Source of the DNA: Thermoleophilia bacterium
GTDB lineage: Bacteria > Actinomycetota > Thermoleophilia > UBA2241
Length of the DNA: 64,000 nucleotides
Direction of reading: 5' to 3'
NCBI GenBank assembly: GCA_016933475.1
Contig: JAFGAW010000027.1
Coordinates: 403-64,402 of the forward strand
Below are positions 46,009 to 48,051 of the stretch, one piece after another (position 1 is the stretch's first letter; each line of letters opens with the position of its first letter). The position numbers and the translations under genes are program-made. The notes below the pieces were generated by a model. That model was not told the origin of the DNA. It did not search any database and worked only from the letters and a program-made list of their open reading frames with translations.

Positions 46009-48051
46009 TCACACCGTGGCGCGCAGCAGCTCCAGGTGGCTCGTGGCACCGCCCAGCACCTTCTCGACACCGTCGTCGCGCAGCGAGGTGACGCCCTTGG
46101 CGCGTGCCGCGCGCTGGATGTCGAGGGCGCTGCCGCCGCCGGCCACCATCTCGCGGAGCTCCTCGTCGAGGACGAGGACCTCGTAGAGGCCGAGCCGGCC
46201 GCGGTAGCCGGTGCCGAAGCACTGCGGGCAGCCCACCGGTGTGTAGAGGTGCAGGCGCTTCTGGGGCGCCGGCCCGAGACCGAGCTCGGCCCATTGCTGC
46301 TCGCTCATCGTGACCGCTTCGCGGCAGTGGGGGCAGAGGCGGCGTACCAGGCGCTGGGCCACGAAGCAGCGCCAGGCGGCGGCGACGAGGTAGCGGGGCA
46401 CCCCCATCTCGACGAGGCGCTGGACCGCGGCGCTGGCGTCGTTGGTGTGCATCGTGCTGAAGACCTGGTGCCCGGTGATCGCCGCGTCGGCCGCCATCTT
46501 GGCCGTCTCGAGGTCGCGGATCTCGCCGACCATGATGACGTCGGGGTCGGCGCGCACGAGGGCGCGCAGCGCCTGAGCGAAGGTCAGGCCGATGCCGGGC
46601 CGTACCTCGGTCTGCACGACGCCCTCGACCTTGCGCTCGATGGGGTCTTCGACCGTGTAGAGCTTGCGCTCGGTCGACTTGACGAGCTCGAGCGTCGTGT
46701 AGAGGGTCGTCGACTTGCCGCAGCCCGTAGGGCCGACGATGGCGATGCCGCCCTCGGGAGCCTTCAGCGCCTGCTCGTAGCGCTCGAGGCTCGCTCCCGC
46801 AAGGCCGAGGTCGCCGAGGGTCGGCGGCAGCGGCGCCACCTCGAGGATGCGGATCGTCAGGTGCTCGCCGTAGAGGCTGGGGATGCTGGCCAGCCGCAGG
46901 TCGGCGGTCTCGCCGCCGGCCAGCTCGAAGCTGGTGCGACCGTCCTGCGGCAGACGGCGCTCGGCGATGTTCATGCCGCCCATGATCTTGAGCCGGCTGA
47001 TGACGCCGGCCTGCGTCTCCTTGGGCAGGGTGCGCAGGTCGTGCAGCACGCCGTCGATGCGACAGCGCACGTGCAGGCTGTCCTCGCGCGGCTCGATGTG
47101 GATGTCGGAGGCGGACATGCCGGTCGCGTCGGCGAGGAGGGTGTCGACGATCTCGATGATGGAGGCGTCGACGGCTTCGGGGCCGACCGGCTCCTCGCCC
47201 GCCTCCCGGCCGGCCTCGCGGAGCTTGCCGCGCGAACTGAAGTAGACCGCGAGCGCGTCGTCGAAGGCGCTCTCGCTGCAGATGACCGGCACGACGCGGC
47301 GCTTTGTGCGCATGCCGACCTCGTCGATGGAGATGACGTCGAGGGGGTTGGTCATCGCGAGGACGAGGGCGCCGGCGTCGTCGATGCGCAGAGGCATGAG
47401 CCGGTGGCGGACGATGAAGTCGCGCGAGAGGAGCGCCATGGCGGCGGGCTCGGGCGCCGTGGCCGTGAGGTCGACGACGCCGATGCGCATCTGGCCGGCG
47501 AGCGCGGCCACGATGTCGTCCTCGCCGACGAGGCCCTCGCGCACGAGCAGCTCGCCGAGGCGACCGCCCTCGCGCCGCTGACGCTCGAGGGCGCGCTCAA
47601 GTTGCTCGCGCCCCACAAGACCGCTGGCGGCGAGCATGGCCCCGAGCCTGAGGCGACCGGCGGCGCGGTGGGCGCGACCCGCGACGAGATGGTCGACCGT
47701 GGTGCGCACTTCGTCGAGGGCCAGCGGCTTGAAGAGCAGCTCGGTGGCACCCAGCCGGCGCACGCGGTCGACCGTGGCGGTCGGGGCCGGTGCGGAGAGG
47801 GCGATCGTGGGGACGCCGTGCAGCTCGGCGGCGTTACGCAGCTGCCGCAACACCTCGAAGCCGTCGATGACGTCGAGCTCGAGGTCGAGGAGGACGGCGC
47901 TCGGGCGCAGCTCCTTGAGCGCCGTCAGCGTCGCGGGCTCGCCGACGTACGTCTTGACGTCGTACGCGTCGGCGAACCGGCGGGCGATCTCGCCGCGCAG
48001 GGTGTCGTCGTCCTCGATCACGGCGAGGACCTTCACGGTGTCGGTCGTCAC
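46009..48051 (-). CDS. GspE/PilB-family secretion ATPase fused to an N-terminal response-regulator receiver (REC) domain
   Basis: REC domain with the phospho-acceptor Asp context (VLLDLELDVIDG); T2SS-E N-terminal domain (LGELLVREGLVGEDDI); Walker A GPTGCGKST; tetra-Cys motif (CPHC...CPQC) of GspE/PilB ATPases. Confidence 0.8.
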   Translation of the reverse strand: MTTDTVKVLAVIEDDDTLRGEIARRFADAYDVKTYVGEPATLTALKELRPSAVLLDLELDVIDGFEVLRQLRNAAELHGVPTIALSAPAPTATVDRVRRLGATELLFKPLALDEVRTTVDHLVAGRAHRAAGRLRLGAMLAASGLVGREQLERALERQRREGGRLGELLVREGLVGEDDIVAALAGQMRIGVVDLTATAPEPAAMALLSRDFIVRHRLMPLRIDDAGALVLAMTNPLDVISIDEVGMRTKRRVVPVICSESAFDDALAVYFSSRGKLREAGREAGEEPVGPEAVDASIIEIVDTLLADATGMSASDIHIEPREDSLHVRCRIDGVLHDLRTLPKETQAGVISRLKIMGGMNIAERRLPQDGRTSFELAGGETADLRLASIPSLYGEHLTIRILEVAPLPPTLGDLGLAGASLERYEQALKAPEGGIAIVGPTGCGKSTTLYTTLELVKSTERKLYTVEDPIERKVEGVVQTEVRPGIGLTFAQALRALVRADPDVIMVGEIRDLETAKMAADAAITGHQVFSTMHTNDASAAVQRLVEMGVPRYLVAAAWRCFVAQRLVRRLCPHCREAVTMSEQQWAELGLGPAPQKRLHLYTPVGCPQCFGTGYRGRLGLYEVLVLDEELREMVAGGGSALDIQRAARAKGVTSLRDDGVEKVLGGATSHLELLRATV

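Follow-up and report, generated by a model that had tools for sequence, protein, structure and literature searches.

A receiver-bearing PilB-type ATPase of uncultured Thermoleophilia, probably an accessory pilus motor, and a conserved structured element upstream of its gene

When type IV pili extend is an active question, and the known answers are either cyclic di-GMP (c-di-GMP) acting on the motors PilB and MshE or separate response regulators that bind the motor. A 64-kb stretch of Thermoleophilia DNA (contig JAFGAW010000027.1, positions 403 to 64,402; hereafter the window, meaning the whole stretch analysed) raises this question in a particular form: among housekeeping genes it encodes a PilB/GspE-like ATPase that begins with a response-regulator receiver (REC) domain. 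What does such a motor serve when it is encoded away from pilus genes? Our analyses indicate that this protein, called REC-PilB below, is probably a PilB-type ATPase of uncultured soil Thermoleophilia that drives type IV pilus extension as an accessory, signal-gated motor. It is a lineage-wide member of an already catalogued architecture and no new kind of system, while the most novel and least expected item at the locus is an RNA element upstream of the gene.

The reading frame of REC-pilB (Table 1) is intact, as a preliminary description of the window had stated. Its G+C content at third codon positions (0.94-0.95) and at second positions (0.47) matches that of the other genes of this 72% G+C window, and orthologues align with the protein from residues 1-9 through residue 680. 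A plus-strand open reading frame (ORF) at 46036-48084 (682 aa) was considered as the real gene and ruled out by its codon-position G+C and its low-complexity translation, the latter marking it as a shadow ORF typical of high-GC DNA. The same description had recognised an N-terminal receiver from the context LLDLELDVIDG, and this proved correct, the acceptor being D56. The domain matched Response_reg (PF00072) over aa 10-119 with 53.1 bits (cutoff 30.2), and the full catalytic quintet of a two-component receiver is present, with the acidic pair D14/D15, the phospho-acceptor D56, S86 and K108-P109. A concern that the conserved Asp/Lys/Thr receiver residues might be missing was dispelled, as they are kept in the great majority of 121 orthologues: D14 and D15 in 117 each, D56 in 118, S or T at position 86 in 105 and K108-P109 in all; S86 is replaced by alanine in 15 orthologues and D56 by asparagine in three. 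AlphaFold2, run with 63 orthologues, predicted a canonical (beta-alpha)5 fold (block-mean predicted local distance difference test score, pLDDT, 80-93 over residues 11-120), whose last helix, alpha5 (112-129), is joined by a short basic linker to four helices at 135-188. Beyond the first 270 residues the model was poor (mean pLDDT 61 over the ATPase half; predicted template modelling score 0.28) and is uninformative on domain contacts.

These four helices constitute the predicted MshEN_N module. The preliminary description had called the protein phosphorylation-gated; the canonical REC fits this, but the term covers only half of the predicted regulation, since an MshEN c-di-GMP site had been overlooked. 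NCBIfam NF053729 ("cyclic di-GMP-binding domain, MshE-related") matched aa 135-187 with 57.5 bits against a cutoff of 38, and the segment comprises two 24-residue motifs, RLGAMLAASGLVGREQLERALERQ (aa 135-158) and RLGELLVREGLVGEDDIVAALAGQ (aa 164-187), separated by the five-residue spacer RREGG. In the structure of Vibrio cholerae MshE the c-di-GMP site follows the consensus RLGxx(L/V/I)(L/V/I)xxG(L/V/I)(L/V/I)xxxxLxxxLxxQ, present twice with a five-residue spacer (PMC5013675). Both motifs and the spacer of this receptor signature were found in REC-PilB, the sole departure being A141 at position 7 of motif I, where 113 of the 121 orthologues carry V. The key residues G137, L140, G144, L145, Q150, L155, Q158, R164-L165-G166, L169 and Q187 are 97-100% conserved, and the motif-I arginine, present in the window protein, is lysine in 114 orthologues. 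A complete MshEN site in addition to REC thus places two predicted signal inputs in series ahead of the PilB-type motor.

The motor itself appears fully equipped. It matched T2SSE (PF00437) over model positions 5-370 of 370 with 383.1 bits (cutoff 24.9; E = 1.4e-114), and this match together with intact Walker A (GPTGCGKST, 440-448), Asp (VEDPIE, 467-472), Walker B (DPDVIMVGEIRD, 502-513) and His (TGHQVFSTMHTN, 526-537) boxes places it in the PilB/GspE/PilT-like superfamily. The T2SS-E N-domain, Walker A and tetra-Cys motif noted earlier were all recovered by Pfam and by motif position. The zinc-type tetra-Cys (C573, C576, C608, C611) and an arginine-rich RRLPQDGR segment are invariant among the orthologues, as are nearly all ATPase motif positions, including K446 and E510, the remainder varying conservatively. 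The N1 domain and the tetra-Cys, along with scores of 499.8 bits to the PilB model and 477.6 bits to GspE versus 133.9 bits to pilT_fam, identify an extension-type rather than a retraction-type ATPase. The closest solved proteins were all pilus extension motors, namely Thermus PilF (519 bits) and the Geobacter and Myxococcus PilB (394-411 bits), and the ATPase region alone scored about 370 bits with PilF versus about 335 bits with GspE. Thermoleophilia are expected to be monoderm like other Actinobacteria.

A traffic ATPase of this kind standing alone had been described as unusual; the distribution of the gene shows that it is no oddity, the fusion being present in every relative examined. A search over 5.8 billion proteins returned at least 120 protein clusters with the same three domains (REC, MshEN and T2SSE), full length and 66-96% identical to the window protein; at 50% identity clustering, this Thermoleophilia family forms a single full-length representative. 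A scan with one genome per species yielded 42 loci at 63-97% identity, mostly titled uncultured Thermoleophilia (a few Actinomycetota or Actinomycetes only) and including many Danish "MFD" isolates, below which only REC-less PilBs from Clostridia and other groups appeared, at about 40% identity. The gene and its synteny are further shared by 74 metagenome contigs. In essentially all loci the order is dnaE ... PASTA kinase - M48 - GATase - MoCF - (Trx) - accC, then REC-pilB, divergent from accC, and past it paaK - HMA ATPase in the opposite orientation and Fer4 - Fur - ZnuA in that of REC-pilB. This conserved order marks REC-pilB as a vertically inherited, stand-alone and apparently monocistronic gene of the lineage.

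Several observations on the family accompany this picture (L and P numbers are our own for loci and proteins). Directly downstream of REC-pilB and on the same strand, one to three tandem GAF-PAS-HD-GYP genes were seen in three species only (Table 1); HD-GYP domains are c-di-GMP phosphodiesterases. Two metagenome-assembled genomes (MAGs) contained two REC-pilB loci each (L019/L020 in MFD09779.bin.2.149 and L037/L040 in MFD00032.bin.2.59), which more probably reflect bins mixed from strains or species than paralogues, since synteny was identical at both copies. The nearest REC-less relatives, P0135 and P0139, lie on contigs too short to reveal operons. Among the high ranks of the representative search were many proteins that contain two T2SSE stretches in about 1000 aa (P0121-P0134); some of these may be assembly artefacts, and a PilB/PilT "fusion" at 4283-6829 of L163 appears to be a long-read frameshift.

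We then consider where the rest of a pilus machine might be encoded. Probe sets for PilC, pilin, PilD, PilM, PilN, PilO and PilT were taken from pilB-pilT-pilC-pilA-pilD-pilM operons of the nearest REC-less relatives, those for PilC, pilin, PilD, PilM and PilT being confirmed by Pfam. By tblastn, no PilC, PilD, PilM, PilN or PilO was found in 1.45 Mb, comprising the window and about 10 kb around the gene at 116 orthologous loci, and Pfam detected no pilus genes, gsp genes or histidine kinases among the annotated ORFs of the window. Both results agree with the earlier statement that PilC/GspF, PilM/N/O, a prepilin peptidase and pilins are not encoded nearby. The pilin probe gave one weak match, in L025, which is a type IV prepilin (RRRDG/FTLIEMFIV..., Pfam N_methyl). 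Such a prepilin gene lies just past accC in L025, L022 and L093 and about 2 kb from REC-pilB in L022 and L025. Its homologues form a family of unusually large prepilins of about 255 aa with G/FTLIE and a conserved C-terminal extension, mostly with N_methyl, scattered in genomes; three contexts of solitary members were looked up (Table 1). Prepilin P0296 shares the European Nucleotide Archive (ENA) accession ERZ25039462 with REC-PilB P0073, and prepilins P0310 and P0358 share ERZ25039527 with REC-PilB P0009, such an accession not necessarily being one genome.

A full set of pilus genes was found at a distance. The L163 cluster has the order alaS-mltG-aroE-pilB-pilT-pilC-sigma-pilins...pilM, and a search with its PilB returned matches at 78-97% identity, among them P0474; three of the matches are named Thermoleophilia by their sources. 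One contig (contig_9487, 1,174,466 bp, MFD04492.bin.1.102) carries both a pilus cluster, L164, at about 413 kb and a REC-pilB orthologue, L011, at about 812 kb, some 400 kb apart. The L164 order is aroE - pilB - pilT - pilC - sigma - pilA - pilA - ABC - ABC2 - unassigned ORF - prepilin peptidase - pilin-like, and its PilB (10001-11980) is a REC-less protein of 659 aa with MshEN and T2SSE. Type IV pilins, PilT, PilC and PilD thus occur in the lineage. REC-PilB is 40% identical to the cluster PilB of L163 (4283-), the only one compared directly, and because of this identity we consider it a second, old paralogue. The suggestion that REC-PilB could energise a pilus system encoded elsewhere fits the complete cluster on the same contig of a related MAG. 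The picture of an ATPase standing alone gave way, in one relative, to that of a further PilB paralogue beside the REC-less PilB of the cluster. Likewise, the premise that Tad/CpaF systems are the norm in actinobacteria did not hold here, as Rubrobacter (PMC8325347) and these Thermoleophilia, with the clusters found, have PilB/PilT/PilC-type pili. A literature search on Thermoleophilia pili turned up only this Rubrobacter/WhiG paper.

The pilus clusters also carry c-di-GMP control signals. Matches to Rfam families RF03167 and RF01051 showed that a c-di-GMP-I riboswitch directly precedes the major pilin gene in both L164 and L163 (Table 1). On the coding strand, WhiG/FliA-type promoter matches (TAAA-N15/16-GCCGATAA, at most two mismatches) precede pilB, pilC, the riboswitch-pilA unit and pilM, with three in L164 and five in L163, where two overlap and four sites result; about 0.2 per locus were expected from a 1.65-Mb background. 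A sigma-factor gene of the SigB/F/G-FliA group lies between pilC and pilA in both clusters. Type IV pilus genes of Rubrobacter use WhiG-type promoters (PMC8325347), and the cluster promoters parallel that WhiG regulon. In the window, the exact WhiG consensus (TAAA-N14-18-GCCGATAA) was not found, only relaxed matches.

The spacer between accC and REC-pilB contains a structured element, some 200 nt long, that all but two of the 42 genome loci share. An exact-pattern scan of the metagenome contigs (L086-L159) gave 74 more copies, all between accC and REC-pilB, which makes the element single-copy and strictly linked to the locus. The REC-pilB start codon follows 57-330 nt past the hairpin (mode about 105), L155 being an exception with an extrapolated offset of -34. 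The terminator-like 3' domain (48290-48357) is invariant and consists of an 11-bp helix (GCCGGGCCGGU / GCCGGCCCGGC) around two smaller helices; a U/C-rich tract comes after it, U-rich in most clades. Upstream of this domain a hairpin covaries (GC to AU, CG), and the element also has a CU-rich stretch. Compared with shuffled sequences, the copy in the window showed the better fold (z = -3.25). A role as accC leader was rejected because the G.U and U.G pairs fit the minus strand only. Rfam 15 gave no match for the accC/REC-pilB intergenic region, whether gathering thresholds or a limit of E = 1 were used, by which a known riboswitch, for c-di-GMP or otherwise, was discarded; 6S RNA, signal recognition particle RNA, transfer-messenger RNA, RNase P and the cobalamin riboswitch were considered, and none fits or was found by Rfam.

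Within the element stands a GCCGATA box, the same -10 box as that of the pilus-cluster promoters. When sequences were anchored on it, GCCGATA(C/G/T/A) was present in 85/85 distinct sequences and TCA(A/T/G) exactly 15 nt upstream in 76 of them; in two of the 74 metagenome copies (L087 and L130) the box was not seen in the available upstream sequence. If the box is a promoter, the locus consists of promoter, structured leader with terminator, and gene, the same layout as the riboswitch-pilA unit. Judging by the alignment, pairing of GAGACCGG with CCGGUCUC in the 5' arm of the terminator is conceivable and would form an antiterminator. Between the hairpin and the start codon there is also a proximal -10-like box, TATGAT, which together with the Shine-Dalgarno sequence is conserved in the clade of the window; other clades have (G)CCGAT(A/G)CGCTAGACT plus GGGAGG at the same place. 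This second box (TATGAT; GCGCTAGACT elsewhere) means that the element may instead be an independent small RNA. Upstream of the element, a long hairpin at about 48478-48545 (minus strand) has arms that covary between species (GGAGGGCGAAAGCGUU / AACGCUUUCGCCCUCC) around a conserved AACGCUUUG; it resembles either part of the RNA or an extracytoplasmic function (ECF)-like GGAAC...TCAA promoter.

The element may regulate REC-pilB. A bolder proposal joins the REC-PilB gene, the RNA upstream of it and a WhiG/FliA-like promoter into a single regulatory unit, by which the type IV pilus of deep-branching Actinobacteria would gain a conditional second motor; the RNA would then be a new cis-regulatory class. 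We regard this as tentative and rather unlikely as a whole. In such a unit, transcription would start at the TCA(A/T)-N15-GCCGATA box and either read through or end in a leader of about 140 nt, riboswitch-like and closed by the invariant terminator, and the protein would then integrate phosphorylation and c-di-GMP.

For the protein, we favour the accessory pilus motor. In its favour are the domains with their conserved motifs, the kinship to solved pilus extension motors, the pilus genes of the lineage, the links to c-di-GMP through riboswitches and HD-GYP genes, the gene context of similar fusions in other organisms and a possible co-regulation by WhiG/FliA-type promoters. The C-terminal two thirds would form a hexameric PilB/PilF-like motor that docks on a PilC/PilM platform encoded elsewhere and polymerises type IV pilins. 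Two regulatory modules would act in series before it, namely REC, phosphorylated on D56 by a histidine kinase, and the four-helix MshEN_N module, binding c-di-GMP. Since alpha5 leads straight into the first c-di-GMP helix, phosphorylation is positioned to affect the c-di-GMP site or the N-terminal ring; it would alter c-di-GMP binding or the placement of the ring, deciding when the motor engages the machine. Phosphorylation, c-di-GMP binding, shared use of the platform and the direction of regulation are all predicted parts of this model. A canonical REC-less PilB stands in the pilus cluster of at least one related genome, so that REC-PilB is most likely a second, conditional extension motor.

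A number of observations weigh against this assignment. Neither a platform gene nor a kinase partner gene occurs in the window or within 10 kb at the 116 loci. Co-occurrence with a pilus cluster on the same contig was seen in one MAG, whose orthologue is 69% identical and which is a relative of the window organism. REC-PilB stays below the cutoffs of the PilB (TIGR02538, 499.8 versus 675.65 bits) and GspE (TIGR02533, 477.6 versus 630.25 bits) equivalogs and diverges more from the PilB model than the cluster PilB of the relative does (644.9 bits, also below the cutoff). It also scored below the cutoffs of TfpB (NF053534, 427.1 versus 850 bits) and ComGA (NF041000, 222.4 versus 300 bits), the latter being a short protein without N1/MshEN, unlike the REC-MshEN-N1 protein; it is accordingly classed as PilB-type within the T2SSE ATPase family, bearing MshEN and REC domains and having no named orthologue. 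The window's own upstream box (TCAT...GCCGATAC) has three mismatches to the WhiG consensus, more than the two accepted in PMC8325347. Lastly, c-di-GMP left the ATPase rates of Clostridium perfringens PilB2 unchanged in vitro (review PMC11656802), which leaves the action of the nucleotide on motors of this kind unsettled.

Alternatively, REC-PilB might be devoted to a filament other than the cluster-encoded pilus, for example a pseudopilus or an adhesive fibre made of the solitary pilin-like proteins of about 255 aa, with its own or a shared platform. The ENA accessions common to solitary large prepilins and orthologues, the prepilin genes near REC-pilB in L022 and L025 and the age of the paralogy implied by 40% identity to the cluster PilB all speak for it. 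Yet pilin adjacency was found in just 2/42 species loci, a second T2SSF/PilC gene was not seen in searches short of genome-wide, and the first approximately 60 residues are near-identical in large and cluster pilins, which fits a single assembly machine; we consider a separate filament unlikely, with a small but real chance of being right. Slighter still is the chance that REC-PilB is a signalling ATPase that senses c-di-GMP and phosphorylation and steers, for example, exopolysaccharide or biofilm rather than polymerising a filament. Its place away from pilus genes in strictly conserved housekeeping synteny and its two sensory domains would suit such a role, and Myxococcus PilB is reported (PMC6957770) to regulate exopolysaccharide independently of pilus assembly. 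However, invariant catalytic motifs, tetra-Cys and RRLPQDGR are what a working motor is expected to retain, and related fusions elsewhere share operons with platform or peptidase genes.

The remaining alternative concerns the REC domain, which might be a phosphorylation-independent pseudo-receiver for docking or oligomerisation and leave c-di-GMP as the sole true signal. A histidine kinase gene was linked to REC-pilB neither in the window nor in any of the 116 contexts, and the replacements at S86 (15/121) and D56 (3/121) point in the same direction. Against this, the catalytic quintet is kept in the great majority of orthologues, K108-P109 is invariant, the domain scores above the Pfam threshold with a canonical receiver model, and orphan receivers with kinases encoded far away are common. 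We judge a pseudo-receiver to be the least probable of the three, by a narrow step below the signalling ATPase. The accessory, signal-gated pilus motor is thus retained as the preferred reading, and the coordinates on which it draws are listed in Table 1.

Table 1. Coordinates of the features discussed, in the window and in the loci compared
Feature	Sequence	Position	Strand	Remarks
REC-MshEN-PilB-type ATPase, coding sequence	Window	46009..48051	minus	680 aa, GTG start, TGA stop
Receiver (REC) domain, aa 7-122	Window	47686..48033	minus	Pfam PF00072
MshEN_N predicted cyclic-di-GMP-binding module, aa 133-187	Window	47491..47655	minus	NCBIfam NF053729
T2SSE_N1 / MshEN C-subdomain, aa 189-275	Window	47227..47487	minus	Pfam PF05157, 67.8 bits
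PilB/GspE ATPase (N2 + C-terminal domain), aa 295-677	Window	46021..47169	minus	Pfam PF00437
Proximal promoter-like region (putative function)	Window	48057..48083	minus	-10 box TATGAT 48078-48083; Shine-Dalgarno GAGAGAGGG 48057-48065
Structured non-coding element	Window	48272..48477	minus (strand of REC-pilB)	Alignment, folding; in the 520-nt accC/REC-pilB spacer
GCCGATA box	Window	48422-48428	minus	Inside the element
CTCA	Window	48445-48448	minus	Inside the element
PaaK-like AMP-binding enzyme	Window	44357-45655	plus	One flank of REC-pilB
Biotin carboxylase accC	Window	48572-49972	plus	Other flank of REC-pilB
c-di-GMP-I riboswitch	L164	15344-15418		Rfam, 61.8 bits; directly upstream of major pilin gene
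c-di-GMP-I riboswitch	L163	9793-9873		Rfam, 57.3 bits; directly upstream of major pilin gene
WhiG/FliA-type sites	L164	9708, 13094, 15274		
WhiG/FliA-type sites	L163	4077, 7479, 9693, 17432		
Prepilin gene	L025	7269-8081	minus	
Prepilin gene	L022	1966-2748	minus	
Prepilin gene	L093			
Solitary large prepilin	L160	10001-10984		
Solitary large prepilin	L161	10001-10768		
Solitary large prepilin	L162	10001-10537		
GAF-PAS-HD-GYP insertion	L016	12246-13718	strand of REC-pilB	
GAF-PAS-HD-GYP insertion	L022	8527-10098	strand of REC-pilB	
GAF-PAS-HD-GYP insertion	L024	5500-8585	strand of REC-pilB	

The flanking genes, paaK and accC, are those named in the preliminary description. Farther neighbours encode a heavy-metal P-type ATPase, Fur/ZnuA, a thioredoxin-like protein, a glutamine amidotransferase, an M48 peptidase and a PASTA Ser/Thr kinase. 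By Pfam on the called ORFs, the remaining genes are housekeeping genes (glmU-like, prs, L25, pth, mfd, mazG, eno, pyk, ppx, an Opp-type ABC transporter, MttB and dnaE). On the accC strand, a conserved TGCTATACT box, extended -10-like, was observed at 48595-48603 (plus) and at the equivalent position in most loci. It falls inside the longest accC ORF, which suggests that accC starts farther downstream or that its mRNA is leaderless; no canonical accC start codon was found at the expected distance past the box. Elsewhere in the window, positions 22000-32000 have a lower G+C content (0.63-0.68 versus 0.71-0.76), hold the Opp-type peptide ABC transporter, the MttB-family methyltransferase and a TetR regulator, and adjoin a tRNA gene (21206-21291); this stretch may have been acquired horizontally. 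At 11405-14686 (minus strand), a gene for a dynamin-family GTPase comes after two neighbouring DUF6062 paralogues.

The REC-PilB family carries both known kinds of input on one polypeptide, and an ordinary PilB is kept in at least one related genome. It could thus serve as a natural test case for the combination of phosphorylation and c-di-GMP on a pilus motor and for why cells keep two extension motors. The clusters also extend to uncultured soil Thermoleophilia the picture drawn from Rubrobacter, in which type IV pili of early-branching Actinobacteria are under c-di-GMP and WhiG-type sigma control.

Among known systems, the motor closest in its solved structures is Thermus thermophilus PilF (PDB 6f8l, 5oiu, 5it5 and 6ejf), the best-scoring relative with 519 bits over aa 135-679 and, like the window protein, a PilB-type motor with MshEN/GSPII N-domains and a tetra-Cys zinc site. 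Thermus PilF has three MshEN-type domains and no receiver, and its system is not known to have another extension motor. In Acinetobacter baylyi, work by Ellison et al. from 2021 reportedly found that PilB and TfpB both serve the same type IV pilus machine as extension motors. The idea of an additional PilB paralogue is alike there, but TfpB is not known to have a receiver and the window protein is no member of its family (427 bits versus 850). The PilB proteins of clusters L164 and L163 likewise combine an MshEN c-di-GMP motif (61.6 bits) with T2SSE; they differ in having no receiver, in being encoded with pilT, pilC, pilins and pilD, and in their score to the PilB equivalog (644.9 versus 499.8 bits). 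The c-di-GMP-activated MSHA pilus extension ATPase MshE of V. cholerae has the same two-motif MshEN module followed by N1, N2 and the ATPase, whereas it lacks a receiver and is encoded in the msh pilus operon. The arrangement (MshEN)3-T2SSE is listed for Deinococcus-Thermus in the table of Wang et al. 2016 (PMC5013675).

Receivers that act on PilB in trans are described for Synechocystis PATAN-REC and Xanthomonas DrdR (10.1101/2021.06.11.447907, PMC11181946, PMC13507683). There a receiver controls the pilus extension motor as a separate protein, whereas the window protein carries it in cis, by fusion. Neither "receiver domain" nor "fused" occurs in a review on the regulation of PilB from 2024 (PMC11656802), and where it speaks of a "response regulator" a separate protein is meant. 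Among the relatives identified here, a 46%-identical REC-less protein (L084) has a separate REC gene immediately upstream of its MshEN-T2SSE gene, a split version of the fusion, and another has an HD-GYP gene immediately upstream and kinases nearby. Other REC fusions were 37-42% identical to the window protein, one of them (P0193) being followed by a T2SSF gene and another (P0172) by a prepilin peptidase gene. The architecture as such is not new: Wang et al. 2016 (PMC5013675, Supplementary Table 4) catalogued REC - MshEN - T2SSE in beta-, gamma- and delta-proteobacteria and chose Geobacter metallireducens Gmet_3473 to represent it. The domain order of Gmet_3473-type proteins is identical to that of the window protein; those listed are proteobacterial and uncharacterised, whereas the window family belongs to the Actinobacteria (Thermoleophilia) and stays together as a single tight cluster at 50% identity.

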